IMG/VR virus record: IMGVR_UViG_3300033075_000810
Source of the DNA: a virus
DNA length: 50,781 nt
Strand: one strand, 5' to 3'
In this document: in pieces, positions 2,316 to 17,196 of the stretch
Layout: each line of letters starts with the position of its first letter
Position numbering within the stretch: position 1 is the first letter of the stretch
Program-made: the position numbers and the translations under genes
Notes under the pieces: model-generated
What the model saw: only the letters and a program-made list of their open reading frames with translations
Told to the model about the DNA's origin: nothing
Databases searched by the model: none

Positions 2316-2386
2316 TGGAGCTTAGGGGAATCGAACCCCTATCCCAACCTTGCAAAGGTCGTATCTTCCCGTTAGACGAAAGCCCC
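2316..2386 (-). tRNA. tRNA-Ala(TGC)
   Basis: Hand-folded cloverleaf GGGGCUU..AAGCUCC-A. G3:U70 Ala identity pair. Anticodon loop UUUGCAA. T-loop TTCGATT. Confidence 0.8.
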
Positions 2387-2722
2387 GTCATCATGGTGAA
2401 GTATCCTGTGGCAGTTGGCACAGAGTACTTCGCACTTTTCTATCTCCCTGAGTATCCTAGCCTTGGAGTGACCAAAGCTAACCATCTCTGAGACACACCC
2501 CTCTTTCAGAGTCTCGTCTCTGTGATGGAAGTCGAGTGCGGCTGGGTGGGAGAAAGAACACCTCTGGCACTTGAGAGACTTCTTCAATTCAAAGAACCAA
2601 CTCCTCAGTTCCTTCCTTCGTTCAGCAGTTCTTGCGATCAGCCGTTCTTTGTTCTGCTTGTACCAAACAGCCTTGTAGGTCTTGTTGTAGGCTGCCGCTG
2701 TTTCTTTGTCTTTGAAGGCCAT
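2372..2722 (-). CDS. HNH endonuclease (paralog 1)
   Basis: CxxC...DFHH...CANCHRILH HNH motif. 3' end overlaps the 5' end of tRNA-Ala by 15 nt. Confidence 0.8.
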   Translation of the reverse strand: MAFKDKETAAAYNKTYKAVWYKQNKERLIARTAERRKELRSWFFELKKSLKCQRCSFSHPAALDFHHRDETLKEGCVSEMVSFGHSKARILREIEKCEVLCANCHRILHHDDGAFV

Positions 2723-2766
2723 GCCCTAACAGAGCGTTGCATCCTTGGTTTTTGTTGCAAGCCCCG

Positions 2767-3063
2767 TCAAACCTGACCAAGCATCATCTCAAGGCTCTTG
2801 ACCTGCATCCAGACCTCGGGGTCTTGGTGCAGCTTCAGCATGTTCAAGAGCTTCCTGAGCCTCTTCTGGGCGTCCCGGCTCAGGTAGCCGCTTCGCACCA
2901 CCTTGGTCAGGTAGGTGAGCTTGGCGGTCATCTCGTTGGGCGAGAGCATCTGGTGCTGGCCCGCGATCTGGTCGATCACACGGCCAGCGATCCCGTCCGG
3001 GTCGCCGCCCAGCCATCCCTCGTCCTGCTCCATCAGGAGCAGCATGTCGTAGAACTCGCCCAT
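2767..3063 (-). CDS. hypothetical protein
   Basis: 98-aa ORF in the operon orientation. Confidence 0.4.
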   Translation of the reverse strand: MGEFYDMLLLMEQDEGWLGGDPDGIAGRVIDQIAGQHQMLSPNEMTAKLTYLTKVVRSGYLSRDAQKRLRKLLNMLKLHQDPEVWMQVKSLEMMLGQV

Positions 3064-3079
3064 GACCTTATGTAGTAGC

Positions 3080-4003
3080 TTACCTACACCTCTTCTCGCG
3101 GCGGACCATCCACTCGCGGAAGCTCTCGGCAGCCACCAGCGGCTCCGCGAAGTTCACCTTGCCGAGGCCGATCTGGCTCACCATGCCCATCGTGTCGCCC
3201 GTCTGGGGCATGAAGTCACGCGGAGGAGCGTTCACGACCGGCTGGTTGTTGGCCTGCATCTGGCTGACCGCCCAGGCCATGTACTCACCGGCTGCCTGCC
3301 GGATGTCACCGTTCTGCTTGATCCGGTCCCACGTCGCGTTGCCCTGGGCCGCTTCAAACGCCTGGACCGCCTGGTCCGAGGCCGTCTTGGCAACGTACTC
3401 GGCAACCACCTGGGGGTTCGTGTTCAGCAGGTTGACGCCCTTGGCCGCAGACTGGGGGACGTTGCCCTTGATGCCCGCGATTGCCATCTGGGTGACCTTC
3501 AGGGCCTGCATCGGGTCCGTCAGGCTCACCAGATCGATGGCGTCGATCATGCCCTCGGGGTTGAGGCAGAAAATCTGGCTCCAGCGGTGGTGACCGTCAA
3601 TGATGAAGGAGCCGCCGCCCGTCAAGATACTGCCGATGTTGTAGTAGCCCGTCTCGATGATCGGCTTGATCATCCCGACGTACTTGGTGATCGGGTTCTT
3701 CAGCGAGTTCTCAAAGCCGATCTCGTTCTGGGTCGGCTTGAGCCGCGTCACCGGGATGCGTACCTTGCGGACCTGCACCTTGTCGTCGCTCGGGTCGCCG
3801 TCGAGGAGGCCCGACATGATCAGCTTGCGGATCTTCGGGTCGTTGACGTTCTGCTGAAGCTCGCCCACGAAAGTCTGGTAGTCCCTCTCGTTGAAGATGG
3901 ACTTCAACCTCTGAGCGGCCTCCCCGTATTCTGCGGAGTTGACAGCCGCATAGGGATCGCGTGGGTCCTTCGACTCCATGAAGGTCTTGAAGGATGTGAT
4001 CAT
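3080..4003 (-). CDS. ParB/Srx-like nuclease domain protein
   Basis: IIDGHHRW motif typical of the ParB N-terminal domain. N-term MITSFKTFMES motif. Confidence 0.55.
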   Translation of the reverse strand: MITSFKTFMESKDPRDPYAAVNSAEYGEAAQRLKSIFNERDYQTFVGELQQNVNDPKIRKLIMSGLLDGDPSDDKVQVRKVRIPVTRLKPTQNEIGFENSLKNPITKYVGMIKPIIETGYYNIGSILTGGGSFIIDGHHRWSQIFCLNPEGMIDAIDLVSLTDPMQALKVTQMAIAGIKGNVPQSAAKGVNLLNTNPQVVAEYVAKTASDQAVQAFEAAQGNATWDRIKQNGDIRQAAGEYMAWAVSQMQANNQPVVNAPPRDFMPQTGDTMGMVSQIGLGKVNFAEPLVAAESFREWMVRREKRCR

Positions 4004-4419
4004 GCCGTATGTAGGCTAGACATCCCTTTGCTGTTGCCGATTGTGGTGTGGAAGCATTTCACGAACCCCTCAGGGGGCAGCGTGTACTGGCTGCTCACCG
4101 GCAGCCCTAGCTCCACCCGGATCTCCTCCAGGCGGACGCAGAACACGTTCAGCCACCAGTAGACCGTGCCACGCTTGATCTCGCTGTCGTAGACGAACTC
4201 GATCTCCTCGCCCTCGTACTTGCCCCAGGCGTCCGGGTTCGCCGGCGTCTCCTTGCGGACGACGCTGACGTGGGCACCGTACCTCTGGCGGTTCACATGG
4301 TAGTACTTGGGGATCAGGCTGCGGTAGTAGTCCGCCAAGTCCTGCTCGATCTCCAGCACCAACTTGTGGCCGTATTCGGCCACCCCGTATCGGAGGATGC
4401 CGGCTGCTTTGTAGAGCAT
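4000..4419 (-). CDS. 2H phosphoesterase-like protein (LigT/CPDase family candidate)
   Basis: Two H-x-T/S-x motifs (AHVSVV, FHTTIG) in a 139-aa protein. ATGA overlap with the downstream gene. Confidence 0.4.
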   Translation of the reverse strand: MLYKAAGILRYGVAEYGHKLVLEIEQDLADYYRSLIPKYYHVNRQRYGAHVSVVRKETPANPDAWGKYEGEEIEFVYDSEIKRGTVYWWLNVFCVRLEEIRVELGLPVSSQYTLPPEGFVKCFHTTIGNSKGMSSLHTA

Positions 4420-4438
4420 TGGTCATCTCCTCGTTCAG

Positions 4439-4511
4439 AGGCTGGGGTGGGAATCGAACCCACGTCGGGCACTTTAACAGAGTGCTGCTCGGCCTTCTGA
4501 GCTACCCAGCC
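4439..4511 (-). tRNA. tRNA-Asn(GTT)
   Basis: Cloverleaf GGCUGGG..CCCAGCC-U. Anticodon loop CUGUUAA. T-loop TTCGATT. Confidence 0.8.
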
Positions 4512-4842
4512 AGATTTCATCCTCGACCTCAAAGTGACAGTTGGCACAAAGTAAGTCACACTTCTCGGCCTCTGCCACACACTTCGCCCACGACTTGCAG
4601 TCGCCGCTGCCGATCCCGAATGTCTTCTGACCACGGTCCTTGTGGTGGAACTGCAAAGCCTTCTTGCACTTGTCGTAGCCGCACCTCTGGCACTTGCCGC
4701 CGAAGTGTTCGACCAGCCGAGCCTTGAGCCGCCTACGCGACTCGGACACCTTCTCGACATTGCACCTCTTGCACTTCAGGTGTCCTTCCTTGGTATGGTA
4801 ACCCTCGGTCAGTCCGTGGTGCTTGCAGTTCTTGGTGAGCAT
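4474..4842 (-). CDS. HNH endonuclease (paralog 2)
   Basis: Zn-ribbon CxxC pairs plus FHHKD...CANCH. 3' end overlaps tRNA-Asn by 38 nt. Confidence 0.8.
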   Translation of the reverse strand: MLTKNCKHHGLTEGYHTKEGHLKCKRCNVEKVSESRRRLKARLVEHFGGKCQRCGYDKCKKALQFHHKDRGQKTFGIGSGDCKSWAKCVAEAEKCDLLCANCHFEVEDEIWLGSSEGRAALC

Positions 4843-4920
4843 AGCCTAGTAGAGCTATGCTGCATCAACTTCGACATAGTTGCGTGCTAACCGTTACACT
4901 ACAAGTCCATTCTACTTCAC

Positions 4921-5472
4921 TTAGCCGCCGCCGGGCAACTTGACTCCCAGGCGGTTTGCGGCCTGCATGACCACCGTCTGGTGCTGTTCAGGAGGCACGT
5001 CCCTCAGGATTTCGGCCACCTTCTCGGCACCCGGCTTCAGGCCGCTCTCACCCATGCCCAGGTAGGGCTTCAGGGCGTTCACCAGCCGCTCCAGGGCCGA
5101 CATCAGCATCTCGGCGTCAATCGTCTCCATCGGCCAGGCGTTGGTGCCGGCGTCCCAGCCCTCCTTGCCCATCTGCCACGCCTTCTTGACCGAGTTGATC
5201 GCCATGCCCACCAGGGCACCGAAGGGGCCGTTCTCGCGGCCCGACCAGTCACGACGCTTGGGGTCGTCCTTGCTCACCACGCCGCCGACTCCGGTCGCAG
5301 CACCCCAGCCGGCCCCCAGGACCGCACCCAGCAGGGCACCGGCCACGCCCAGCGTGCCGTTGATGCCGACGCCCAGCGAGAAGCTCAGAGGCCCCTCGGA
5401 GACGGGCTTCTTGGTCTTCGACTCAAAGAAGGAACCGTGACGCTGTTCCATCCACTCCCTGAAGTTCATCAT
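4921..5472 (-). CDS. glycine-rich hypothetical protein
   Basis: ORF 4921..5514 trimmed to the MMNFREWMEQ start, because tRNA-Gly occupies 5507+. Gly/Ala-rich hydrophobic core. Confidence 0.45.
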   Translation of the reverse strand: MMNFREWMEQRHGSFFESKTKKPVSEGPLSFSLGVGINGTLGVAGALLGAVLGAGWGAATGVGGVVSKDDPKRRDWSGRENGPFGALVGMAINSVKKAWQMGKEGWDAGTNAWPMETIDAEMLMSALERLVNALKPYLGMGESGLKPGAEKVAEILRDVPPEQHQTVVMQAANRLGVKLPGGG

Positions 5473-5506
5473 GCTCCTAGTTAGGAGTGGCGGTCGCTGT
5501 TTTGAG

Positions 5507-5581
5507 TGCGGCATGAGAGAATCGAACTCTCACCTTCTCGTTGGCAACGAGACGTGCAGGGGACCACTACACCAATGCCGC
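5507..5581 (-). tRNA. tRNA-Gly(GCC)
   Basis: Cloverleaf GCGGCAU..AUGCCGC-A. Anticodon loop UUGCCAA. 11-nt D-loop. Confidence 0.75.
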
Positions 5582-5700
5582 GTGTGAGAGAGCTTGCAGT
5601 AGCCTAAGTCGCGTTGCTCTGCCTTCCGCCGGTTGCCCGGCCCCCTAGCCCTCATCGGAGTGCTGCCCCGCCAGCCACGACGCCAACGGGACCATTCGCC

Positions 5701-6000
5701 TCAATCTTCTGAGTGGTTCTTCCTGTGGCAGTTCGCACACAGGATTACGCACTTCGCTATCTCTTCCTTCAGCCTCTTTAGGCCCCAGTTTCTCGCCGCC
5801 CTGGATATCGCCATCACCTTGTCAGCTTCATGGTGGAAGTCGAGACACCTTGGATGGTTCTCTGGGCAGTTCTGGCACTTGAGTGTGCCCTTCAGGCTGT
5901 CGATGTATTCCCTGTTCTTAGCCCGCTTTCGCCTCTGGGCCTCAGCGTACTTGTCCTTGTTTCGCTGATAGTACTCTTGGTGCCACTTCTTGTCCTTCAT
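5701..6000 (-). CDS. HNH endonuclease (paralog 3)
   Basis: CQNCPENHPRCLDFHHEADK...CANCHRKNH. Confidence 0.8.
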   Translation of the reverse strand: MKDKKWHQEYYQRNKDKYAEAQRRKRAKNREYIDSLKGTLKCQNCPENHPRCLDFHHEADKVMAISRAARNWGLKRLKEEIAKCVILCANCHRKNHSED

Positions 6001-6042
6001 GGACTAAGATAGTAGTTCAAGTCCCATCTTGGGATTAAAACG

Positions 6043-6124
6043 TCCTCCACCGGGGACTTGAACCCCGAATGCCTTTCGGCGTCCCGTTAAGAGCGGGGGG
6101 CTGTGCCACTACAGCTTGTGGAGG
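6043..6124 (-). tRNA. atypical tRNA-like (CTT anticodon loop, 82 nt, extended variable region)
   Basis: Good acceptor, D-arm and T-arm (CGGGG-TTCAAGT-CCCCG). Anticodon loop CUCUUAA with a 27:43 mismatch. 14-nt variable region forming a GCC-GAAA-GGC hairpin. Confidence 0.45.
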
Positions 6125-6602
6125 TCAATCTGACATATCCTCTCGTCCGATTCGCCAGCGACTCAAGGGGGCCAAGGTCCAACCTTCTGGGGTCTTCTAC
6201 AATCAGCAGCCCTGCATGGACTTTCCGGTGACAGTTGCTGCAAAGCACTTCGCACTTCTCAGCCTCGGCCAGGATCTTGGGCAGAGCATACACACAACGT
6301 GCCAGGATGAACTCTTTGTCCTCGCCATCGATATGGTGCATGTCTAAACAAACAGAGCATCGCTCATCGCAAAATCTACACCCCGCCGAGGTTTTAATTG
6401 CATTCAGGGCTTCCGCGATTCGTTTTTGCCTGGATGCGGCCCTTTTGCCGTGCCTATCCTTCTGCTTGGTGGCATGGTAGTAAGCCTTGGCCTGCTCCCT
6501 GTTGCAGATAATGCACTTCGCCTGAAGCCCATCTGAGCGACTTCGACAGACCCCGAACTCACTCAGAGGTTTGTCCTGCTTGCACTTGTTGCACTTCTTC
6601 AT
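6087..6602 (-). CDS. HNH endonuclease (paralog 4)
   Basis: Start moved to MKKCNKCKQDKPL because tRNA-Lys occupies 6636-6706. CxxC...DMHHIDGEDKEF...CSNCHRKVH. 3' tail overlaps the tRNA-like gene by 38 nt. Confidence 0.7.
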   Translation of the reverse strand: MKKCNKCKQDKPLSEFGVCRSRSDGLQAKCIICNREQAKAYYHATKQKDRHGKRAASRQKRIAEALNAIKTSAGCRFCDERCSVCLDMHHIDGEDKEFILARCVYALPKILAEAEKCEVLCSNCHRKVHAGLLIVEDPRRLDLGPLESLANRTRGYVRLTSTSCSGTAPRS

Positions 6603-6635
6603 GGTGTTAAGAGAGTGATGTGCATTCGATTTCAG

Positions 6636-6706
6636 TGGGACCGGAGGGAATCGAACCCTCATAGGGCGGATTAAGAGTCCGCTGCATTCCAATCTGCCAC
6701 GATCCC
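6636..6706 (-). tRNA. tRNA-Lys(CTT)
   Basis: Cloverleaf GGGAUCG..CGGUCCC-A. Anticodon stem GCGGA/UCCGC. Loop CUCUUAA. T-loop TTCGATT. Confidence 0.75.
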
Positions 6707-6708
6707 AG

Positions 6709-7104
6709 TCATGTTGTCATCGGGGCTGGGCCGGACATCGAGTCGCCGGCGTTCTGGTAGGCCCCCGTCTCCTGCTCGGCGTCGATCCTCTGGATGCCCT
6801 CGTAGGGGGCCGAACTGTAGGCCAGAACCTTCTTCCGCCCCGTCGCGTCGTGCTGCACCGAGAAGGTGTCCAACCTGCTGCTGGTGATGACACCGGGGCC
6901 GTCCTTCGTGTTCACCCTGACGCCGACCAATTCCCTGAAACTGGAGACGCCCATCAGGCGGTTGAACCTCTCGCGGGCACGCTTCTTCCAGCCCAGCGAC
7001 CTCAGGTTGGCCCTGTCCGCCTCGGAGGGTGTCGGCTGGGCTACTGGCGTCTCAAGGCCCTCTCGGAGGACCATCCACTCGGTGAACGTCTTGTACTGGC
7101 TCAT
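6709..7104 (-). CDS. hypothetical protein (N-term KTFTEWMVLRE motif)
   Basis: 131-aa ORF. Confidence 0.5.
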   Translation of the reverse strand: MSQYKTFTEWMVLREGLETPVAQPTPSEADRANLRSLGWKKRARERFNRLMGVSSFRELVGVRVNTKDGPGVITSSRLDTFSVQHDATGRKKVLAYSSAPYEGIQRIDAEQETGAYQNAGDSMSGPAPMTT

Positions 7105-7112
7105 GCCAGTAT

Positions 7113-7397
7113 CTATGACCCGCCGCCCGTCTCTTTGAAGTACTCTGCCTTCTCGGCCTCGCTCATGTTGGCGACGAACTCCTTGTGTTCGACGTGCGGG
7201 TCGGTCTGGCGTTTGATCATCCTCAGCAGGTCGGGTTCGACCTTCGTCCAGCGGGTCGTCTCCCTCCCCTGGGGCGTCCTGAACACGAAGCCCAGGTGGT
7301 CCTCTCTGCCGGGGTCCAACTTGAGCATGAGGCCGAAGACCTCAGTCGTGAACACCTGCGGCTTCCGCTTCTTCTGCGGCTGTCTCTGTTGTGCCAT
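7113..7397 (-). CDS. hypothetical protein
   Basis: 94-aa ORF, basic N-terminus. Confidence 0.4.
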   Translation of the reverse strand: MAQQRQPQKKRKPQVFTTEVFGLMLKLDPGREDHLGFVFRTPQGRETTRWTKVEPDLLRMIKRQTDPHVEHKEFVANMSEAEKAEYFKETGGGS

Positions 7398-7680
7398 CGG
7401 CCTGACCCCATTCGTAGCCTTGCATGAACTGTCGGGCTGCTTCCCCCTGGATCTCGCCCACTTTCTGATTGTGTTCGCACCAGCAGTTCTTGAGCAGCAG
7501 GTGGAAGGCCCCGTCGTCGGGGTTGCTGCACTCCCTGAAGATCGAGATGCTGGCCCCGCAGTCGTAGAAGCTCCTGAGGCCGACCTTCATGTGGGTGCCG
7601 GGCAGGGCGTGCCCGCCGATCCACCTGGCCCCACAGCAGAGGCACGTCTCAGGAACCTTGGGCGTCAGGTAGTTCATCAT
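7342..7680 (-). CDS. hypothetical Cys-containing protein
   Basis: ORF 7342..7848 trimmed to MMNYLTPKVPETCLCCGARW. ATGA overlap with the upstream gene. Confidence 0.45.
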   Translation of the reverse strand: MMNYLTPKVPETCLCCGARWIGGHALPGTHMKVGLRSFYDCGASISIFRECSNPDDGAFHLLLKNCWCEHNQKVGEIQGEAARQFMQGYEWGQADGTTETAAEEAEAAGVHD

Positions 7681-7991
7681 CGGTCCCAGTAGTCCGTGGA
7701 AACGTGCTGCCTGGTCAGGCCCATCGTCACCAAGTGCCCGCAGCCGTCCAGTGGGCAACGGATGCTGAGGTAGTCGCCGTCGCGTGGGTCCGAGTTGTAG
7801 TCGGCCTCGCCCTGCTTGAACCTGAACCGCGTGTGGCAGTGGCCGCACGACGCCTCGTAAACCTTCTCGCTGGGCAACTGGCCCTTCCTGATGATCTCGA
7901 CCACGGCGTCACCTCCTGTAAGCTGCCTGTCAGGGCAACTGAATCTTTCCGGCGTGCAGCTTCCTGTGGCAGTTAGAACAAACGCATGCAC
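7677..7991 (-). CDS. hypothetical Zn-ribbon protein
   Basis: CGHCH...CPLDGCGH motifs. Start uncertain, since 62 nt would overlap the HNH tail. Confidence 0.4.
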   Translation of the reverse strand: MHAFVLTATGSCTPERFSCPDRQLTGGDAVVEIIRKGQLPSEKVYEASCGHCHTRFRFKQGEADYNSDPRDGDYLSIRCPLDGCGHLVTMGLTRQHVSTDYWDR

Positions 7992-8343
7992 ATTTGGCTA
8001 TCTCCTCAAGGATGCGGTCCCAACTGTACCCCATGCTTGCCACCCTGCCAATCTCAAAATCCTTGCCATCGGGGTCAAGGTGGTGAAACTCAAGACAGCA
8101 GGGTTCGCTTTCTGGACACAGGGCACACTTGCACCCCATCTTGAAGTCCCTAAGCATCTCCTGCAACTGCTTCCTATGAAGTCTATTCCTCTGCCGTATG
8201 TCCTGGCAGTTTTTCAGGTAGTTGTCCCGACTCAGCTTGCTGCTGCAAACCCTACACTTGGTTTGTAGTCCATCTCTCCTCTTGGCGTCCTTGTTGAAGT
8301 CTTCAGCCGGCTTCTCGATCTGGCACACCGAACATTTCTTCAT
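7930..8343 (-). CDS. HNH endonuclease (paralog 5)
   Basis: CSVCQ...CRVC Zn ribbon. CLEFHHLDPDGKDF...CSNCHRKLH. Confidence 0.8.
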   Translation of the reverse strand: MKKCSVCQIEKPAEDFNKDAKRRDGLQTKCRVCSSKLSRDNYLKNCQDIRQRNRLHRKQLQEMLRDFKMGCKCALCPESEPCCLEFHHLDPDGKDFEIGRVASMGYSWDRILEEIAKCACVCSNCHRKLHAGKIQLP

Positions 8344-8378
8344 GCTCTAGCGTAGTCTGACTATGTCAATTTTCAGAA

Positions 8379-8449
8379 CTGCCGACCAGGGAATCGAACC
8401 CCGGTTTCTTCGTTCAGAGCGAAGCGTCTTACCATTAGACGAGTCGGCA
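8379..8449 (-). tRNA. tRNA-Gln(CTG)
   Basis: U1:A72 and G73 (Gln-type). Anticodon loop CUCUGAA. Perfect stems. Confidence 0.75.
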
Positions 8450-8453
8450 AAAA

Positions 8454-8524
8454 CTGCGGGACTAGGAATCGAACCTAGACCAAGAGGGTCAGAGTCTCTT
8501 GTGCTACCACTACACCATCCCGCA
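8454..8524 (-). tRNA. tRNA-Gln(CTG)-like (second copy, divergent sequence)
   Basis: U1:A72, G73. Anticodon loop CUCUGAC with A31:C39 mismatch. Separated from the previous tRNA by 4 nt. Confidence 0.6.
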
Positions 8525-8593
8525 TCGGTTACGCATCGTTGATCAATAGGTAGATCAACACCGCCCCGATCACGATCAGCAGGTCCGCTTCCA

Positions 8594-8860
8594 TCAGTCG
8601 CCCTCTGGCTTGGGTCCGAACATCTGCTCGACCGCCGCCGGAAACTTCGCCCTGAAAGCCTCCAGGGCACCCCTCATGTACTCCAGCAGGGTCCGCACTT
8701 GCAGGCCCTCGGAGGCTCGCAGCTTCATGCCGCCGTCGCCGGCGGCGTGGTTGTTGTACTCGCCCTTGCCGTACATGATCACGCCCTTGAAGGACTTCCG
8801 GCTCATCAGTTCGTTGACCAACTCGTCGTTGGTCATGAACTCAGGGTCCAGCTTACTCAT
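8594..8860 (-). CDS. hypothetical protein
   Basis: 88-aa ORF. Confidence 0.4.
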   Translation of the reverse strand: MSKLDPEFMTNDELVNELMSRKSFKGVIMYGKGEYNNHAAGDGGMKLRASEGLQVRTLLEYMRGALEAFRAKFPAAVEQMFGPKPEGD

Positions 8861-10885: not shown

Positions 10886-10959
10886 TCGGGCTGAGAGGAT
10901 TTGAACCTCCGATCTCTAGTCCCCAGACTAGCGGCCACTCCAAACTGGCCCACAGCCCG
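10886..10959 (-). tRNA. tRNA-Pro(GGG)-like with 8-nt anticodon loop
   Basis: C1:G72, A73. T-arm GGAGG-TTCAAAT-CCTCT. Anticodon arm CUAG-UCUGGGGA-CUAG, one nt short of a 5-bp stem, so the loop is 8 nt. Confidence 0.5.
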
Positions 10960-10988
10960 ATGTCGCCCCGCCAAGGCGGGGGCTTGCT

Positions 10989-11432
10989 TCACTTCTTGAT
11001 AGCGACCATGCACACCACGCAGCCGCTCTCCTTGTCATCCAGTTCCATCGAGTGGACCTTGGTGTGGTCGAACTCGTAGACGATGCCGACGCCGACCTCC
11101 GTCCAGCACTCCTCGGCGGTGATGATCGCCCTGCCCGTCTTGGGGAGGATCAGAGGGATCACGAAGGTCGTGTCCTCAAACTTGGCCGGGAGCTTGTCGG
11201 TGTGAGGCTCGGCTCCCTGACAGGCCGAGAAGTAGACGTAATTGAGTTTGCTCCTGGGCTGGCCGATGACCGCCGCCAGTTGCTCCATCAACTCCTCGCC
11301 GCCCCCCTCCTTCTCCAGCTTACGGATCTGGAACTTCTCGGGGGTGTTCACCTTGTAGTTCTCGTACTTCACCTTGTCGGCGTTGTCGAGGACCGACTGA
11401 GGAATCATCACCACGCCGCGTGTCTTGATCAT
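10989..11432 (-). CDS. hypothetical protein (possible 2OG-Fe oxygenase-like HxD...H)
   Basis: ATG at 11432 with strong AAGGAGG SD. Listed ORF start 11480 is a TTG. Confidence 0.45.
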   Translation of the reverse strand: MIKTRGVVMIPQSVLDNADKVKYENYKVNTPEKFQIRKLEKEGGGEELMEQLAAVIGQPRSKLNYVYFSACQGAEPHTDKLPAKFEDTTFVIPLILPKTGRAIITAEECWTEVGVGIVYEFDHTKVHSMELDDKESGCVVCMVAIKK

Positions 11433-11476
11433 TTTGGGTTCCCTCCTTGCCGGGCGAAGCACGGATGGTAAGGCGG

Positions 11477-11932
11477 TCAACCCGCTTTGTCAACAGTGAG
11501 CCTGAACATCATGTTCTCGTCTACGACCGCTCGCCCGGCGTGGAGTTTCCTGTGGCAGTTGGCACACAGGATGACACACTTCTCCATCTCCTTCACCACG
11601 CGGGACCACTTCCACCCGCAGCGTATCCCATCGGCTATCTGCTTGTCCTTGTCTTGCACATGATGAAAATCAAGGCAAGCAGGGTCGGCCTCAGGGCACA
11701 AAGAGCATTTGGACCTGCTTTTGATCTCTTGGTAGAGCCGGGAATTGGCCTCCACGGTCGCCAGCTTCCTTGAAATGGCCGAGGCGATATGCTCTTGGCG
11801 GTTTTCTTGGTAGTACTGCCTCATGCGTTCTTTGTTGCAAACCTTACAGTAAGACTGCAACCCTGAACCGCTCTTGTTGAACTCCGATTTAGGCTTGTCT
11901 AGCCGACAACAACTGCATCTCTTGGTGTCCAT
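11477..11932 (-). CDS. HNH endonuclease (paralog 7)
   Basis: CSCCRLDKPKSEF...CKVCN. CLDFHHVQDKDK...CANCHRKLH. Confidence 0.8.
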   Translation of the reverse strand: MDTKRCSCCRLDKPKSEFNKSGSGLQSYCKVCNKERMRQYYQENRQEHIASAISRKLATVEANSRLYQEIKSRSKCSLCPEADPACLDFHHVQDKDKQIADGIRCGWKWSRVVKEMEKCVILCANCHRKLHAGRAVVDENMMFRLTVDKAG

Positions 11933-11970
11933 GACCTAAGAGAGTGTCAATCTGGAGGTTCGTTTCAAAA

Positions 11971-12038
11971 TTGCGGGCCAGAGGATCGAACTCTGTGCGG
12001 CTTGCTTCAAAGGCATGCCTGTGTCCAACACTCCCGCA
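11971..12038 (-). tRNA. atypical tRNA-like (TTG anticodon loop, 68 nt, truncated D-arm)
   Basis: U1:A72 acceptor with one mismatch. Anticodon arm CAUGC-CUUUGAA-GCAAG. T-arm CAGAG-TTCGATC-CTCTG. The D-region is only 14 nt. Confidence 0.4.
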
Positions 12039-12065
12039 GTCAGTCCCCTGCCGAGGGCCAGGCCG

Positions 12066-12308
12066 TCACTTCGTCTTGTGGGGAGGCATCTGATACTCGA
12101 TGCAGCAGGAGGTTTCCCAGCTACCGCACGAACACAGGTAGACCTTGGCGATCACCCGCCTTTTGCAGGTTGGGCACCTCACCCTCAGCCTCTTGTACTT
12201 GGGGCCGGGCTTCACGTCGAGCTTGCCGGCGTGGCCTGTGGGGTTGGTACACCATTCACCCTTGGGCTGGGCCTGCTTCCTGCTCTCCCTGCGTTGAGGG
12301 TTCCTCAT
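12066..12308 (-). CDS. small basic Zn-ribbon protein
   Basis: CPTCKRR...CSCGSWETSCC. Confidence 0.35.
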   Translation of the reverse strand: MRNPQRRESRKQAQPKGEWCTNPTGHAGKLDVKPGPKYKRLRVRCPTCKRRVIAKVYLCSCGSWETSCCIEYQMPPHKTK

Positions 12309-12618
12309 CTTCCACCTCCACCTCGCTCAGATCCCATCGACAGGACCGGCAGCGGCCCTCGTCATCGTACAGCAGGCCGTCCGGCCCGACGTAGCAGTCC
12401 TCATGGAGGCCGCTTGAGCAACCCCAGTTCAACTTGCCGTCAGTCGGGTGGGCCTTGTAGCACAGGTGGCTTGCTTTGACGGCTACCCAGCCGCTATCGC
12501 TCACCTGGCCGTGCATCCTGAGGACCATCTCGCTCGCCACGAAGCCCCTGGCGTGAGCCGCCTCAAGCTCGGCAACCACCTTCCTGGCCTCTTCCAGATT
12601 GATCGTCAAGTGGTTCAC
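12256..12618 (-). CDS. hypothetical protein
   Basis: 120-aa ORF. Overlaps the previous ORF by 53 nt in another frame. Confidence 0.4.
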   Translation of the reverse strand: MNHLTINLEEARKVVAELEAAHARGFVASEMVLRMHGQVSDSGWVAVKASHLCYKAHPTDGKLNWGCSSGLHEDCYVGPDGLLYDDEGRCRSCRWDLSEVEVEDEEPSTQGEQEAGPAQG

Positions 12619-12678
12619 GGTGTCCTCCTACCCCAGGCCCTTGCGGGCACTGGGCGGCTTCATGAAATCGCTTCCTTG

Positions 12679-13107
12679 CTAAGGGAGTCGGGCGAGGGTT
12701 AGTTTGCCAGCATGCACTTTCCGGTGGCAGTTACTGCACAAAACGCAGCACTTGGTAATCTCCTTGGCGATCCTGTCGGCAGATAGTTGTCGCCGGACGC
12801 CGTCCGCTACATTGAAGTCCTTGCCTCCATCTAGGTGATGGAAATCAAGACAGCAAACCTCCGATTCTCCGCAAACCTGACAGCCTTTGCTTTTGGCACT
12901 TTTCAAAATCGATGACAGGTATCGCCTCGTCCTTTTGGCGTTCTCCCTCACCTTCTGTCTGCGTCCATTCTTTGGCTCCCGATAGTACTCTCGGTCGCGT
13001 GCCCTGGTACACTCACGGCAATATGCCTGAGTGCCCCTGCGGCTATCCTTGTTCCACTCTGAGAGTGGTTTGTCGAGGTTGCATCGTCGGCAGTGTTTAG
13101 TCTCCAT
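12679..13107 (-). CDS. HNH endonuclease (paralog 8)
   Basis: ATG at 13107 (METKHCRRCNLDKPL); the listed start 13155 is TTG inside a tRNA. CLDFHHLDGGKDF...CSNCHRKVH. Confidence 0.75.
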   Translation of the reverse strand: METKHCRRCNLDKPLSEWNKDSRRGTQAYCRECTRARDREYYREPKNGRRQKVRENAKRTRRYLSSILKSAKSKGCQVCGESEVCCLDFHHLDGGKDFNVADGVRRQLSADRIAKEITKCCVLCSNCHRKVHAGKLTLARLP

Positions 13108-13147
13108 GCCATAGGAGAGTGAGATGCTTCGGAAAATCCGAAGCAAG

Positions 13148-13220
13148 TCGGGCAACCCGGAGTCGCACCGGGAACCCCCCGCTTCCGACGCGGGAATGCT
13201 TCTATCCGCACCCTTGCCCG
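13148..13220 (-). tRNA. tRNA-Pro(CGG)
   Basis: C1:G72 CGGGCAA/UUGCCCG, A73. Perfect anticodon stem. Loop GUCGGAA. Unusual T-loop TGCGACT (G at position 55). Confidence 0.65.
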
Positions 13221-13283
13221 TTGCTTCGGTTTTCGGGATTAAGGATCGCTCCTAGTCCCAGGATCACCGTCACCAACCTTAGG

Positions 13284-13358
13284 TCAGAGAGACAGGGGTC
13301 GAACCTGCATGATAGCCTGCCTCCAAAGCAGGTGGCTTGCCAATTAGCCCACTCTCTG
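13284..13358 (-). tRNA. tRNA-Pro(TGG)
   Basis: C1:G72 CAGAGAG/CUCUCUG, A73. Anticodon arm CCUGC-UUUGGAG-GCAGG. 7-nt variable loop. Confidence 0.65.
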
Positions 13359-13435
13359 ATTTGACTGGAGACATAGACGAACAGAGATAGTTTCGCCGCG
13401 TGCTACTGTTACACTACCCCTTGAGAGCTTGGGCT

Positions 13436-13515
13436 TGGTCAAGGGGGCAGGAGTCGCACCTGCACTTCGTCCTCCGAATGGAATGAAGTAGCCCTGTCCT
13501 GCACCTTCCAGTCAG
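13436..13515 (-). other. orphan tRNA 3'-fragment: T-arm (GCAGG-TGCGACT-CCTGC) + CCCCTTG + ACCA, no pairing 5' acceptor
   Basis: 80 nt abutting the 3' end of tRNA-Asp. Internal hairpins, but no complement to the 3' acceptor strand exists within reach. Confidence 0.4.
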
Positions 13516-13588
13516 CGGCCTAAACGGGGGTCGAACCCGCACACTTCCGGTTGACAACCGGCTGCTGTCCCAACTCAGCTTCTAGGCC
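13516..13588 (-). tRNA. tRNA-Asp(GTC)
   Basis: GGCCUAG/UUAGGCC acceptor, G73. Loop UUGUCAA. T-arm GCGGG-TTCGACC-CCCGT. Confidence 0.7.
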
Positions 13589-13672
13589 GTGTTTTTGGCT
13601 AAGTCTTTGGTCGGCATGTCGGCACCCCCACAATCGTAAGGGGCCTGTCACCAAGCGACCACTGGTGACAAG

Positions 13673-13745
13673 CGGACTTGACGGGAGTCGAACCCGCTCC
13701 CCAACCTCGACAGGGTTGTGTGCTATGCCGGTACACTACAAGTCC
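13673..13745 (-). tRNA. tRNA-Asp(GTC) (second copy)
   Basis: GGACUUG/CAAGUCC, G73. Perfect anticodon stem CAACC/GGUUG. Loop CUGUCGA. Confidence 0.7.
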
Positions 13746-13858
13746 ATTTCCTTCCTGATGCGGGAGCGACCCGTTTCTCCTTCGTGTGCAGGAAGGTCAC
13801 ACTATCCTCAACCCCACCCAAAGGCACGCAGGCCCTTGGGCATTGAAGAGGCTGGTAG

Positions 13859-13930
13859 CTGCCTCGGGAGGGGTCGAACCTCCATAGCCGACTTAACAGG
13901 TCGGTGTCCTACCAGTTGAACGACAAGGCA
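13859..13930 (-). tRNA. tRNA-Asn(GTT) (second copy, U1:A72 G73)
   Basis: UGCCUUG/CGAGGCA acceptor. Perfect anticodon stem CCGAC/GUCGG. Loop CUGUUAA. Confidence 0.75.
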
Positions 13931-13951
13931 GTGAGTTGTTGCTTAGGTGAG

Positions 13952-14024
13952 TAGCCCCGTAGGGTAACGATCCCTCTTGACCGGATTAAAAGTCCGGGCC
14001 TCATCCACTAAAGGTGTCGGAGCC
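13952..14024 (-). tRNA. tRNA-Lys(TTT)-like with degenerate T-loop
   Basis: Anticodon arm CCGGA-CUUUUAA-UCCGG. Acceptor GGCUCCG/CGGGGCU (two G:U pairs). T-loop ATCGTTA is non-canonical. Confidence 0.35.
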
Positions 14025-14090
14025 ATTGATGATGGACTCCGTGCGTTTATGCGTCATCTTGAACTCCTTCCTTTGTTGGTGACCTAAGAG

Positions 14091-14161
14091 AGCCGGTGGG
14101 GGGAATCGGACCCCCATTTCCTGTTTACGAGGCAGGCGTCTTACCACTAGACGACACCGGC
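14091..14161 (-). tRNA. tRNA-Thr(CGT)
   Basis: Perfect acceptor GCCGGUG/CACCGGC. Loop CUCGUAA with a C31:A39 mismatch. T-loop TCCGATT. Confidence 0.6.
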
Positions 14162-14443
14162 TAACATCAGTGCCTTGTAGTATCCCCGCTCTTTCGCGGT
14201 CTTGATCCTATGGCACTTCACGCATCTAACGTCGCACTTGGCGATCTCAGCCTTGATCGACTCCAGGCTGTGGCACCTCATCGCGGCCACGTCGTGGATC
14301 TTCCCGTCGCGGTGATCGAAGTCTAGGACAATCGGGTTGTCCTCTCCGCACTCCACACAGGGGTGTGCCTTCAGGTATTCATGATGGCTGCTCGCCTTTT
14401 GGGACTGGAGGCGTAGTGCCTCTTGTCCTTTTCCCTGCCACAC
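14147..14443 (-). CDS. HNH endonuclease-like (paralog 9, start uncertain)
   Basis: [19 protein letters not shown]...CVKCHRIK. Listed ORF 14147..14722 runs through two tRNAs, so it is trimmed to the GTG at 14443. 3' end overlaps tRNA-Thr by 15 nt. Confidence 0.5.
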
Positions 14444-14514
14444 ACCTTGCAGTAGTCTTGCTTGCCGTCTGGCTTCATGCCCTATCAGAGTCGTAATCGC
14501 CAGAAAAGTACGAG

Positions 14515-14588
14515 TCGGGGTGGTGGGAATCGAACCCACTCGATGTCCTGGCCCCAAACCAGGCGGCTTGCCTTTAGCCCACACCCCG
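14515..14588 (-). tRNA. tRNA-Pro(TGG) (second copy)
   Basis: C1:G72 CGGGGUG/CACCCCG, A73. Anticodon arm CCUGG-UUUGGGG-CCAGG. 7-nt variable loop. Confidence 0.7.
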
Positions 14589-14662
14589 TCGCCTGTGGGG
14601 ACCGGAGTCCCCTTCGGGCTTTCGCCCAGGCCGCATTGACCTGCCTTTTCCCCTAAGGGAAG

Positions 14663-14737
14663 GGTGGACGAAGGGAATTGAACCCTCACCTTCTCGCTCA
14701 CAACGAGTCGTGCAGAAACCACTACACCACGTCCACC
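14663..14737 (-). tRNA. tRNA-His(GTG) with encoded G-1
   Basis: Extra 5' G pairing with discriminator C73. Loop UUGUGAG. T-loop TTCAATT. Confidence 0.75.
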
Positions 14738-14930
14738 ATAACTCGACCGACTAGCGGATTCCCCGTTTTCAGGTCACGCCGGTCAGATGACCACTCAGTT
14801 TCTGGATATCTAAGCTACAGTCTGCTCCACCCAGGTCTTCGTTTCAGAGATCGGTCGGAATCCGCCAACCCTCCACTACTCGTCCTGCCCTACCGAGGAT
14901 TACAACAAGGCTTGGGCCGGCTTTCGTGAG

Positions 14931-15003
14931 TACCCCGAGAAGGAATCGAACCTTCACCTCTGCCTTATCAGAGCGGCGTGCAGAGCCACTACACCATCGG
15001 GGT
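14931..15003 (-). tRNA. tRNA-Ile(GAT)
   Basis: A1:U72 and A73 as in bacterial tRNA-Ile. Loop CUGAUAA. One C:A mismatch in the anticodon stem. Confidence 0.65.
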
Positions 15004-15053
15004 ATGATGCCTGGGTACGATTCCAGGCAGCCCGGCTTTTGATCACCAGGCAG

Positions 15054-15124
15054 TGGAGCCTAGGGGAATCGAACCCCTATTTCAAGCATGCCATGCTTGC
15101 GTCTTCCCGTTAGACGAAGGCCCC
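15054..15124 (-). tRNA. tRNA-Ala(GGC)
   Basis: GGGGCCU/AGGCUCC with G3:U70, A73. Perfect anticodon stem. Loop AUGGCAU. Confidence 0.8.
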
Positions 15125-15195
15125 GGTCAGTCCCCTAATCCCTCCCGCCCTAGTATACGTCAGGCGGTCAGACGATTCGTGCCCTTACACCACAG

Positions 15196-15290
15196 TTGCG
15201 AACTGACCGGGAGTCGAACCCGGAACCTCACCGTGGGACGGGGACTGGTAATCTAAACTGCTCTGATGAGACAGAGCAAGGTCTGCAATC
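15196..15290 (-). other. tRNA-like fragment (T-arm CCGGG-TTCGACT-CCCGG plus hairpins, no complete cloverleaf)
   Basis: Canonical T-arm with GCUCUG-UCUCAUC-AGAGC hairpin upstream. No 5' acceptor strand found. Overlapped by the 3' end of HNH paralog 10. Confidence 0.3.
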
Positions 15291-15719
15291 CTCAACATTT
15301 CTCAAACCTCTCTCGACCAATCTGTGACACCTGGCACAGAGGACGATGCACTTGTTGACCTCCTGGGCCACTCTGTCTGACGAGTCGAAATAGACCGCTT
15401 GAGCTAAGTTGAATCCCTTCAAGTCTTTGTCCAAGTGGTGAAAGTCGAACTCACATGGGTGCCCTGGCCTCTTGCAGATTTGGCAGCCGTATTCGACCTT
15501 GATCTCGTCTAACCTCAAGGCTATTTGCTCACGCCTTTGGCGACGACGATCATTGGATTTCGCGGCAGCCGCTTTGGGATTCTTGCGATAATGGCGGCGA
15601 GAGCATTCCTTACTGCATGGCCGACAGATAGTGTTCAAGCCATCTGCTTTGGCTTTATTCTTGTTGAAATCGCTCAGTGGCTTGTCCTGTTTACAGGATG
15701 TGCATCTCTTGGCGTCCAT
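15228..15719 (-). CDS. HNH endonuclease (paralog 10)
   Basis: CTSCKQDKPLSDF...CRPC. CEFDFHHLDKDLKGF...CARCHRLVE. Confidence 0.8.
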   Translation of the reverse strand: MDAKRCTSCKQDKPLSDFNKNKAKADGLNTICRPCSKECSRRHYRKNPKAAAAKSNDRRRQRREQIALRLDEIKVEYGCQICKRPGHPCEFDFHHLDKDLKGFNLAQAVYFDSSDRVAQEVNKCIVLCARCHRLVERGLRNVEDCRPCSVSSEQFRLPVPVPR

Positions 15720-15760
15720 GAACTAAGAGAGTATTCGCACCACGATTTTAGACAAGAAAG

Positions 15761-15831
15761 TGGAGCCTATGAGAATTGAACTCATGTCTTCAGCATGCGA
15801 AGCTGATGTTCTCCCGCTGAACTAAGGCCCC
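15761..15831 (-). tRNA. tRNA-Ala(CGC)
   Basis: GGGGCCU/AGGCUCC with G3:U70, A73. Loop UUCGCAU. T-arm AUGAG-TTCAATT-CUCAU. Confidence 0.75.
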
Positions 15832-15832
15832 G

Positions 15833-16462
15833 TTATCTGTATCTCTCTCCTCTAGGGGTGATCTCCTTGTCGTCTCCCCTCATGATTTTGGCGATCCTTT
15901 GCCCGCCATCCTGCCACGTCGGCTTGCCGAGCGGCTGGCCGCTACTCTTCAGGTACTTGACCAGATCCTTCCTCACGAACACCTGGCCGAAACCGTAGAC
16001 CTTGCCGAGGTCCGCGTAACCGGGCAGGCCGACCTTCTTTGCCAACTTCTCGTACAGGCGGCTCAGGTCGCCGTCCATGCCGTTCCACCCGAGGGCCTCG
16101 GGCTTCTCCGTCTTCAGGAACGTCTTGACGATGCTGGCGATCTTCTTGAGTAGGGGGATCACTCTGTTCTTGCCGGTCCTCTTGTACTTGGCGTCGTCAT
16201 CCCCCCAGAGGTCTTCCTCAGGCTCCAAAAGTCTGGTCTGGGACGGGTAGAAGGTGACCGTCCAGTAAGGCAGCGACTTGCCGTTGATCGTGTAGGTCTG
16301 GCCCAGTGACATCTTGTCGAACTGAACCGCATACCAAGTGCCGTCGTCGTCCTTGAAGGACGCCACGTCGCTGACACCTTTCCTGCCCCAGAATGTGCCC
16401 GCCGGGGGCTGGGATGAGATGTCGTCAAACACCTCGTTCATGTAGTCCTTGAAGCCTTCCAT
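15833..16462 (-). CDS. hypothetical protein (N-term MEGFKDYMNE motif)
   Basis: ORF 15833..16579 trimmed to ATG 16462, because tRNA-Glu lies upstream. Confidence 0.5.
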   Translation of the reverse strand: MEGFKDYMNEVFDDISSQPPAGTFWGRKGVSDVASFKDDDGTWYAVQFDKMSLGQTYTINGKSLPYWTVTFYPSQTRLLEPEEDLWGDDDAKYKRTGKNRVIPLLKKIASIVKTFLKTEKPEALGWNGMDGDLSRLYEKLAKKVGLPGYADLGKVYGFGQVFVRKDLVKYLKSSGQPLGKPTWQDGGQRIAKIMRGDDKEITPRGERYR

Positions 16463-16489
16463 GCGGTATCTAGGCAACGCACCTAGAAA

Positions 16490-16560
16490 TGACCCGTAAG
16501 GGAATCGAACCCTCCTTTGCTGGTTGAGAACCAGCCGACCTCCCAGAAGTCGAACGGGCC
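16490..16560 (-). tRNA. tRNA-Glu(CTC)
   Basis: GGCCCGU/ACGGGUC. Perfect anticodon stem GCUGG/CCAGC. Loop UUCUCAA. Confidence 0.7.
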
Positions 16561-16650
16561 GAGACAGGTGGGGCGGCATGGGCGTGTCGCCCCACCTGAA
16601 TTGCCGTGTTGCCGGATTGTCAAAGAACTAGAGGCACTTTCAAGCCTCAG

Positions 16651-16709
16651 CGGAGCCGGCGGGAGTCGAACCCACCCAGGGTGCATGCTTGCCCTGACCA
16701 CTAGACTCC
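16651..16709 (-). other. 59-nt mini tRNA-like element (acceptor + one hairpin + T-arm GTGGG-TTCGACT-CCCGC)
   Basis: Too short for a cloverleaf. Acceptor GGAGUCU/CGGCUCC pairs at 6 of 7 positions. Single internal hairpin CAGGG-10nt-CCCUG. Confidence 0.3.
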
Positions 16710-16740
16710 AGATGTCACCAACACTCACCAGCCAGGAAAC

Positions 16741-16787
16741 AGAAAAAGCTCGCCTCAGGCTTGGGTGCCTGAGGCGAGCTTTGTGTA
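16741..16787 (-). terminator. bidirectional intrinsic terminator (15-bp perfect stem, A-run before, T-run after)
   Basis: AAGCTCGCCTCAGGC-ttgggt-GCCTGAGGCGAGCTT. On the minus strand it is followed by TTTTTCTGTTT. Confidence 0.5.
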
Positions 16788-17052
16788 CCCGGTTAGGGTG
16801 TCCAGCTTCGGCTCAGGCTTACCCTGAGCCGCGAGGCTCAAGGTGTTATGGAATATCGACGGCGGGCTTATTGGCTCGCTCGGTACGCACGATGGTACGA
16901 CGCGGCTGTTCAGCCGTTTTCGTCGTATGCCATGCTTGAGTACCGATGAACGTCATGATTCGGAACACCTTTCCTGTCTTGAAGCAGGGGGCCTTACGGT
17001 CCCCCGCCACCTGTCGTCGCTTCCCGCACGCTGCGGGTCGCTTCTGGTGAGT

Positions 17053-17123
17053 CTCGGGGGCAGGATTTGCACCTGCGATCTCAAGGTTATGAGCCTTGCG
17101 AGTTACTACTTCTCCACCCCGAA
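17053..17123 (-). tRNA. tRNA-Met/Ile2(CAT) type, atypical (3-bp D-stem, T-loop TGCAAAT)
   Basis: Perfect anticodon stem CAAGG/CCUUG. Loop CUCAUAA. U1:G72. Confidence 0.55.
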
Positions 17124-17124
17124 G

Positions 17125-17196
17125 TGCGGGAGGCTGGATTTGCACCAGCGATCTTCAGGTTATGAGCCTGACGAGTTACTACTTCTCTACTCCCGT
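17125..17196 (-). tRNA. tRNA-Met/Ile2(CAT) type, atypical (tandem paralog)
   Basis: Anticodon arm UCAGG-CUCAUAA-CCUGA. A1:C72 mismatch. T-loop TGCAAAT. 1 nt from the previous gene. Confidence 0.5.

Follow-up and report, generated by a model that had tools for sequence, protein, structure and literature searches.

HNH endonuclease genes of one family interleaved with, and overlapping, the tRNA genes of a viral tRNA array

The window analysed here is a stretch of 50,781 nucleotides (nt) from the IMG/VR virus record IMGVR_UViG_3300033075_000810, whose source is a 114,781-bp JGI contig. It carries an array of transfer RNA (tRNA) genes interleaved with ten genes of one HNH endonuclease family, five of which end inside the next tRNA or tRNA-like gene. 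We consider it likely that this array was repeatedly colonised by free-standing homing endonuclease genes of PHROG 2255/3106, for which the nuclease activity is putative. With ten nuclease genes in 15 kb, the array is an unusually dense natural example of such an arrangement. There is still debate on how phages build up, exchange and diversify their large sets of tRNAs, a question to which tRNA-targeting defence systems add weight.

HNH genes of the array and their overlaps with tRNA genes

The ten HNH open reading frames (ORFs) all lie on the minus strand and belong to one family, with eight intact copies, one C-terminal remnant (HNH6) and one frameshifted copy (HNH9) (Table 1). Every copy matched PHROG 2255/3106, annotated as 'HNH endonuclease', with E-values from 1e-17 to 1e-34, and the motif CxxC...LDFHH...CxxLCANCHRKxH, in which two CxxC zinc pairs frame the catalytic motif, was common to the ten ORFs. 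A preliminary description of this DNA had listed ten paralogous HNH genes on the same strand, with two decayed copies at 10177 and 14147, and both statements were borne out. In the alignment of the copies (HNH1 numbering), H67, C97, C101, C104 and H105 were invariant and C52, C55 and H66 were nearly so, while deviations at the N or the last H of the motif were found in HNH2, HNH9 and HNH10. An N-terminal zinc ribbon, KxCxxC...GLQxxCxxC, is present in HNH4, HNH5, HNH7, HNH8 and HNH10, is absent from HNH1 and HNH3, and has a diverged version in HNH2. The Pfam HNH model PF01844 matched the copies only below its gathering score, and a sequence search of the PDB gave only the McrA motif with an E-value of 0.047. 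From the conserved residues, this widespread family is predicted to be a CxxC/CxxC zinc nuclease of the beta-beta-alpha-Me type (HNH/His-Me finger superfamily), and its members often have a zinc ribbon at the N-terminus. The possibility that the ORFs are artefacts or chance reading frames was ruled out by the PHROG E-values and the conserved motifs. Every copy is intergenic, with tRNA genes or small ORFs on its sides and no intron or intein around it, and all except the HNH6 remnant keep a start codon of their own.

The tRNA genes were predicted by ARAGORN, and the Rfam tRNA model agreed with 25 of the 27 calls, with identical ends. The two calls made by ARAGORN only, both of which form a cloverleaf when folded, are located at 6042-6124 (83 nt, Lys-like, anticodon CTT, with an extra arm) and at 13147-13220 (Pro-CGG-like, with an odd T-loop). 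All 27 calls are on the minus strand and several fragments accompany them, so that about 29 tRNAs on one strand, as counted earlier, is a fair figure. Five of six fragments are adjacent to HNH genes, compared with about 10 of 25 good tRNAs, and this link between pseudo-tRNAs and HNH neighbourhoods is suggestive but not significant. Only one strong terminator-like hairpin was found on the array strand, and therefore long polycistronic precursor transcripts are plausible. As a separate observation, the tRNA at 10885-10959 (minus) shows 78% identity to tRNA-Pro(GGG) at 10609-10683 and has a 6-nt anticodon loop; ARAGORN reported it as 'tRNA-???' and Rfam scored it at 51.6 bits. It is a copy in decay or else a variant in the anticodon loop.

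The five overlapping stop codons fall at different places in the downstream tRNA. HNH1 ends 15 nt inside tRNA-Ala with a TAA in the D-loop (nt 13-15), and HNH9 ends 15 nt inside tRNA-Thr 14090-14161 with a TAG in the D-loop (nt 13-15). HNH2 and HNH4 both end 38 nt inside, in tRNA-Asn and in the non-canonical Lys-like element, respectively, where the stop consists of anticodon base 36 and A37-A38. The HNH6 remnant ends 10 nt inside tRNA-Val(TAC) 10114-10186 with the TAG of U8-A9-G10. Four of the five overlapped tRNAs are supported by Rfam, with 5' ends identical to those given by ARAGORN. The earlier claim that five HNH stops lie 10-38 nt inside the next tRNA thus held after tRNA prediction. 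For a sixth pair, proposed at 15228, the tRNA fragment (a 3' half) is indeed there, but it adjoins the end of the ORF and does not overlap it. The spacing is more regular on the upstream side, where HNH3, HNH4, HNH5, HNH8 and HNH10 begin 32-41 nt past the preceding tRNA or tRNA-like gene, and HNH9 begins 35 nt past it.

A second class of selfish nuclease was noticed elsewhere in the window. A PhoH-like ATPase of 571 amino acids (aa), encoded at 42821-44536 (minus), contains an intein-like insert at about aa 30-400, in which Pfam detected a homing endonuclease domain of the LAGLIDADG class (LAGLIDADG_3, E 7e-11; Hom_end, E 4e-5).

Overlap and variable blocks across the family

IMG/VR was scanned with two HNH alignments, which gave 160 loci, and a profile search returned 168 HNH ORFs that formed 115 clusters at 80% identity. 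Non-HNH ORFs of at least 100 aa located upstream of tRNAs in the same loci were used as controls. Loci bearing tRNA genes house 51 of the 115 family clusters, and for 38 clusters a tRNA on the same strand follows within 300 nt. The stop codon was inside this tRNA in 23 of the 38 clusters (61%), while the same was true for 9 of 46 control ORFs (20%; Fisher p = 2.4e-4). The overlap lengths among the 23 clusters were 2-45 nt with a mode of 10 nt, and in five further clusters the ORF and the tRNA were 0-10 nt apart. Among the overlapping members, the tRNA begins at a median of 29 nt past the CxxCH. Family members away from tRNAs have a tail after the CxxCH with a median of 16.5 aa (usually 13-23 aa), and therefore the tRNA occupies what is otherwise the C-terminal tail. 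These results indicated that the overlap is neither due to chance nor unique to this phage, and that tRNA genes are physically fused with genes of one common HNH family; the movement of the two together is described below.

The overlap might also be a packing artefact, in which any ORF with a tRNA directly downstream would, in a compact GC-rich genome, continue to a tRNA-encoded stop and HNH genes are merely the commonest ORFs at this place. Such packing would cover the 20% of control ORFs that overlap too, as well as T5.069, T5.057 and a helix-turn-helix (HTH) ORF of the locus L082 (see below), all of which overlap tRNAs. It would also cover the overlap lengths, which fit random frames meeting conserved tRNA stops (the mode of 10 nt corresponds to UAG at positions 8-10). 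We regard this explanation as very improbable, because overlap is three times commoner in the family than in the controls, the tRNA begins within the usual C-terminal tail, and, in the phages KIL1 and KIL4, the HNH gene is inherited in one block with the tRNA that it overlaps.

True homologues in cultured phages are wV8 gp051 and its Felix O1 counterpart (Felixounavirus), PaoP5_050 (Pakpunavirus), and KIL1 gp157 and KIL4 gp166 (Flaumdravirus), with hidden Markov model (HMM) E-values from 1e-23 to 1e-41, and from 1e-39 to 1e-41 for wV8 gp051, PaoP5_050, KIL1 gp157 and KIL4 gp166. Like the window copies, they are located in tRNA arrays. In the RefSeq annotation, KIL1 gp157 overlaps tRNA-Thr and KIL4 gp166 overlaps tRNA-Gly by 10 nt each. 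Unlike the window copies, they occur as one to few copies per genome, in AT-rich genomes, and with ordinary promoter-like sequences and a Shine-Dalgarno (SD) sequence.

The two Pseudomonas phages KIL1 and KIL4 are 93-100% identical in both flanks of the locus. Between these flanks, KIL1 has gp157 with a tRNA-Thr allele showing just 70% identity to its KIL4 counterpart, and KIL4 has no HNH gene there. Conversely, KIL4 has an extra block containing tRNA genes and an HNH gene (Table 1). These block differences explain the 5 and 9 tRNAs reported for the two phages. In Felixounavirus, the tRNA-HNH-tRNA segment of wV8 was covered to at least 80% in just 22 of 327 records; AYO145A is without a 497-nt block consisting of a pseudo-tRNA and the HNH gene, and in Alf5 a different member of the family is inserted at a distance of about 140 nt. 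Judged from these genome comparisons, the unit that comes and goes in the family is the HNH gene together with an adjacent tRNA. The KIL1/KIL4 pair offers a tractable system to ask whether HNH-tRNA units drive tRNA allele replacement. The HNH-tRNA linkage is not discussed in the papers on Felix O1 and the KIL phages.

For the lineage of the window itself, a megablast search of the array against INPHARED found no close cultured relative, and the DNA ligase of the window is less than 33% identical to any phage record. With the S51 peptidase encoded in the array, an IMG/VR scan for relatives returned nothing, and a search for homologues yielded an identical protein and, as the one useful relative, L082. 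Over 17.8 kb, a Logan contig (L081) matches the window at 100% identity and therefore gives no polymorphism information. The sole real relative is thus L082, a 3-kb locus with 70-75% nucleotide identity, in which the order of genes is an orf147 homologue, a 99-aa ORF, tRNA-Val(GAC), a 216-aa HTH ORF, tRNA-Val(TAC) and the S51 peptidase. The 216-aa ORF (1339-1989), which combines an N-terminal HTH_23 domain with an unassigned C-terminal one, likewise stops 10 nt within tRNA-Val(TAC), and in its slot the window has tRNA-Val(CAC) and the HNH6 remnant instead. At the position of HNH7, L082 has an unrelated 105-aa ORF. In this minimal sample, the HNH slots appear to be variable between the window and its relative. 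The preliminary description had proposed a comparison of related genomes for the presence or absence of individual units. Block polymorphism was found in KIL1/KIL4 and in Felixounavirus, but the own lineage provided just L082, with other genes in two HNH slots. The 216-aa ORF was considered as a homing endonuclease, since a LAGLIDADG-like sequence, 'LICGLYWGEGAK', was seen by eye, but Pfam and PHROG matched HTH only and the PDB search was empty, and it is not so called here. A metagenome scan with orf147 gave only two distant loci with different GC content.

Start signals, origin of the copies and a proposed mechanism

An SD-like sequence of at least 4 nt was found at none of the nine HNH starts, compared with 15 of the 22 other genes in the window, in agreement with the earlier remark that the HNH genes are without SD sequences. 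A 13-nt motif with the consensus ACTCTCTTAGGnC abuts the ATG of all nine HNH genes that retain a start, with ACTCTCTTAGGTC as its best copy. Weaker versions abut the ATG of orf181 (9399-9411) and of orf98 (3064-3076), and two solo copies also exist (Table 1). The homologues in other phages have TATAAATA-type sequences and an SD at the equivalent place, and therefore the 13-nt motif belongs to this phage, not to the family. We infer that the motif may be a promoter, which would yield leaderless or nearly leaderless mRNAs. A sigma-70 promoter was rejected, because the consensus sites were not enriched (7 found, 3.8 expected) and the spacing did not fit. A T7-type promoter was also rejected; the likeness is limited to the HNH9 copy, ACGACTCTGATAGGG, and is a weak lead only. 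No phage RNA polymerase was visible in the window. The non-HNH array genes orf228, orf307, orf131 and orf209 are also without an SD, and have a different context abutting the ATG, approximately TAGATACYGGC-ATG. A sizeable set of genes in the array region seems to use non-SD initiation.

The HNH paralogues are 29-43% identical in the alignment of the ten. For every HNH protein of the window, a BLASTP match in unrelated viral contigs was better than any within the window; the external and internal scores were, for instance, 116 and 66 bits for HNH1, and 74 and 44 bits for HNH2. The same-anticodon tRNA pairs (Asn, Gln, Asp and Pro-TGG) are 58-69% identical, close to the background of unrelated tRNAs (57 +/- 4%), which fits the accretion of imported units. 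Both tRNA-Val(TAC) and tRNA-Asn, which are linked to HNH genes, lack any relationship to their isoacceptors. Local tRNA duplicates were also detected, namely Val-CAC/GAC (82%), Ala-TGC/GGC (83%) and Met/Met (83%). The junction of tRNA-Val(CAC) with the broken HNH6 and the tRNA-Asp truncated by HNH2 show that cassette borders were rearranged in the past. The idea of a mobile HNH-tRNA cassette, put forward earlier, is supported by the block polymorphism in KIL1/KIL4 and Felixounavirus, the slots of L082 and the dissimilar tRNA duplicates. On the other hand, the accompanying suggestion that this cassette built or expanded the array found no support, since the level of identity among the paralogues and their better external matches give no sign of recent expansion in situ.

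Segmental amplification in situ, in which a single ancestral HNH-tRNA unit would have multiplied in tandem before its copies diverged, was weighed against these data. It would resemble SegB with tRNA-Tyr in phage T6, a precedent that uses homology between the 3' part of segB and the 5' part of the tRNA (PMC13096335). Amplification would account for the same phage-specific motif at all nine HNH genes with a start, where homologues elsewhere have TATAAATA and an SD, and for the isoacceptors that flank HNH genes (Lys/Lys-like, Val/Val and Ala/Ala). Some tRNA duplicates (82-83%) did arise in situ, and tRNA-Val(CAC) abuts the broken HNH6. However, the paralogues are no more than 29-43% identical and have higher-scoring relatives in unrelated viral contigs, the similarity of the HNH proteins does not track that of the adjacent tRNAs, and the same-anticodon duplicates are at background identity. 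We therefore consider amplification in situ unlikely, and it is kept as a minority explanation because the shared upstream motif speaks for long residence or some spread within the lineage.

For repeated colonisation, the following mechanism is proposed. Each gene forms a minimal cassette, consisting of the 13-nt non-SD motif abutting the ATG and then the ORF, wedged into the spacer between two tRNAs. It begins about 32-41 nt past one tRNA and ends against the next, and because no spacer remains, the ORF reads into the tRNA up to a tRNA-encoded stop. The nuclease would cut or nick the cassette-less allele of a co-infecting relative. Recombinational repair would then copy the cassette and the overlapping tRNA, so that the two travel as a unit and import foreign tRNA alleles. 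The array would be transcribed as long precursors, in which case cleavage by RNase P at the 5' end of the tRNA would remove the HNH stop codon and limit the expression of the nuclease, in line with the proposal for T4 SegB. The cutting of cassette-less alleles, the copying of the cassette with the overlapping tRNA and the removal of the stop codon by RNase P are what we infer. A more far-reaching proposal, which we offer only tentatively, is that the family might be a dedicated tRNA-cargo homing lineage. In this lineage, the overlap would lock nuclease and tRNA into one mobile unit, and the units would import foreign tRNA alleles and assemble and diversify arrays by accretion. The dosage of the nuclease would be coupled to RNase P via non-stop mRNA, and the private 13-nt signal would give leaderless or nearly leaderless mRNAs.

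Several findings weigh against repeated colonisation by overlapping units. Five intact HNH genes have no tRNA overlap, which indicates that the overlap is not required, and the overlap in 20% of the control ORFs means that it partly reflects general tight packing. The phage-specific motif shared by the copies suggests long residence or spread within the lineage, not ten fresh imports. Moreover, the own lineage has a single 3-kb relative, and homing polymorphism in this phage is therefore deduced from other phages.

Domestication was also considered, that is, the HNH proteins may serve the phage and be kept by selection instead of being selfish, with proposed roles in the degradation of host DNA or tRNA genes, in the maintenance or rearrangement of the array under tRNA-targeting defences, or as a packaging aid. 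In its favour, eight of the ten ORFs are intact and keep the conserved ligands for catalysis and zinc, SegB helps escape from Septu, OLD and ToxIN (PMC13096335), and the tRNA-HNH region adjoins the terminase gene in the KIL and PaoP5 phages. Two copies are decayed, however, and HNH2, HNH9 and HNH10 have altered motif residues. The copies are dispensable and variable among near-identical cultured phages, a distant relative (L166) has a 20-tRNA region without any family member, and one function would hardly explain ten divergent paralogues. We judge domestication to be improbable, even more so than amplification in situ, and prefer repeated colonisation by homing endonuclease genes.

Table 1. 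Positions of the HNH genes, start motifs, tRNA fragments and other features; window coordinates unless a locus is named
Feature	Position	Strand	Remarks
tRNA gene array	2157-17196	minus	27 ARAGORN calls, with 10 HNH genes and about 17 further small ORFs among them
HNH1	2372-2722	minus	short form, 116 aa; TAA stop is nt 13-15 of tRNA-Ala(TGC) 2315-2386
HNH2	4474-4842	minus	122 aa; degenerate C-terminal motif CANCHFEVE; last 38 nt are the 5' half of tRNA-Asn 4438-4511
HNH3	5701-6000	minus	short form, 99 aa; begins 41 nt past the Lys-like tRNA; no overlap (119 nt to tRNA-Gly)
HNH4	6087-6602	minus	long form, 171 aa; begins 32 nt past tRNA-Lys 6635-6706; runs 38 nt into Lys-like 6042-6124
HNH5	7930-8343	minus	long form, 137 aa; begins 34 nt past tRNA-Gln 8378-8450; AlphaFold2 (AF2) model, predicted local distance difference test (pLDDT) 88
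HNH6	10177-10365	minus	remnant without start codon; joined to 3' end of tRNA-Val(CAC) 10366-10436
HNH7	11477-11932	minus	long form, 151 aa; degenerate Gln-like tRNA before it
HNH8	12679-13107	minus	long form, 142 aa; begins 39 nt past Pro-CGG-like tRNA 13147-13220
HNH9	14147-14478	minus	pseudogene; frame from ATG at 14478 ends after 35 codons; HNH domain in another frame
HNH10	15228-15719	minus	long form, 163 aa; motif N replaced by R; begins 40 nt past tRNA-Ala(CGC)
13-nt motif, best copy	11933-11945	minus	abuts ATG (HNH7)
13-nt motif, equivalent copies	2723-2735, 4843-4855, 6001-6013, 6604-6616	minus
13-nt motif, equivalent copies	8344-8356, 13108-13120, 14479-14491, 15720-15732	minus
13-nt motif, solo copy	14081-14093	minus	fused to 3' end of tRNA-Thr; SD-led ORF next
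13-nt motif, solo copy	45447	plus	SD-led ORF next
TAGATACYGGC-like contexts	2109-2125, 4004-4020, 7105-7121, 16463-16479	minus
tRNA-Asp 5' two-thirds	4866-4908	minus	84% identity to tRNA-Asp 13672-13745; cut after anticodon stem by HNH2 cassette
Degenerate Gln-like tRNA	11972-12038	minus	precedes HNH7
T-arm and acceptor fragment	15197-15227	minus	tRNA 3' half only; directly after HNH10
tRNA-like piece	16652-16709		fragment within array
Intrinsic-terminator-like hairpin	16745-16782	minus	16-bp stem and T run; sole strong one on array strand
KIL1 variable block	locus L163 2498-2986		HNH gene and tRNA-Thr allele
KIL4 extra block, 1284 nt	locus L170 1446-2729		tRNA-Asn, tRNA-Pro, tRNA-Leu, HNH gene, tRNA-Gly; 8-nt repeat borders; absent from KIL1

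Some other genes in and near the array were noted. A 139-aa ORF at 4000-4419 (minus), within the array, weakly matches 2H phosphoesterases (Pfam 2H-SAK, E 5e-4; PHROG 12204, E 7e-20) and may encode an RNA-repair or RNA-end-processing enzyme among the tRNAs. The Peptidase_S51 gene (cyanophycinase/peptidase E-like) at 9395-10078 (minus), also inside the array, has a predicted N-terminal hydrophobic segment and is an unusual phage cargo. A second tRNA-like cluster follows the gene for a 650-aa TROVE-domain (Ro60/Rsr-like) protein at 28663-30615 (minus; Pfam E 2e-20). It contains ARAGORN calls with abnormal anticodon loops at 27615-27695, 27789-27860 and 28115-28190, and a weak match to YrlA (Y RNA-like) at 27912-28009 with 28.9 bits, under the gathering score. 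The region 27615-30615 looks like a phage Ro-Y RNA module. In phage wV8, an 'RNA-binding protein' is likewise encoded immediately upstream of the tRNA array.

Comparison with known systems

The preliminary description did not recognise the array as a described arrangement, but precedents exist in T4 segB (PMC2330249) and in hegC and hegD of the T5 annotation. That homing endonucleases located in tRNA clusters spread the tRNAs next to them is a principle established before, for T4 SegB and for T5. SegB recognises the T-psi-C motif of tRNA genes and spreads with the flanking tRNA genes, and its authors suggested that tRNA maturation may cut the nuclease mRNA at the stop codon, for segB/tRNA-Arg and by extension for the T5 enzymes (PMC2330249). 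In T6, SegB amplifies tRNA-Tyr with the help of homology that the 3' end of segB shares with the 5' end of the tRNA (PMC13096335). In the RefSeq record of T4, segB begins 41 nt past tRNA-Ile and ends 5 nt before tRNA-Arg. Like the window genes, segB lies within a tRNA array and on its strand, abuts the tRNA downstream and is inherited together with flanking tRNAs, the last of which is seen for the window via its homologues in KIL1 and KIL4. Unlike them, SegB has a GIY-YIG fold instead of HNH and is present as one copy per genome instead of ten, and its cleavage sites were mapped experimentally, in the T-psi-C motif of tRNA genes.

The T5 genes hegA, hegC and hegD (F-TflI, F-TflII, F-TflIV) are HNH-superfamily genes scattered in a same-strand tRNA array, with pseudo-tRNAs or tRNA-like RNAs adjacent, and in RefSeq the overlap is 23 nt between hegD and tRNA-Gln2 and 14 nt between hegC and tRNA-Ser2. 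However, they belong to other HNH subfamilies (HNH with NUMOD4, or HTH with HNH), are three in number and have normal translation signals, and hmmsearch with the window-family profile found none of the three at E-values up to 10. HNH genes have also been noted in large mycobacterial and mycobacteriophage tRNA clusters, where they were suggested to spread or diversify tRNA sets (PMC6409571, PMC6582537); the likeness to these cases is taken from brief mentions in the literature. The window system would work in the manner of SegB and the T5 heg enzymes, yet it is a member of neither family. What goes beyond the literature searched is the family-wide statistical link of this HNH family with ORF-tRNA fusion and the private non-SD motif.

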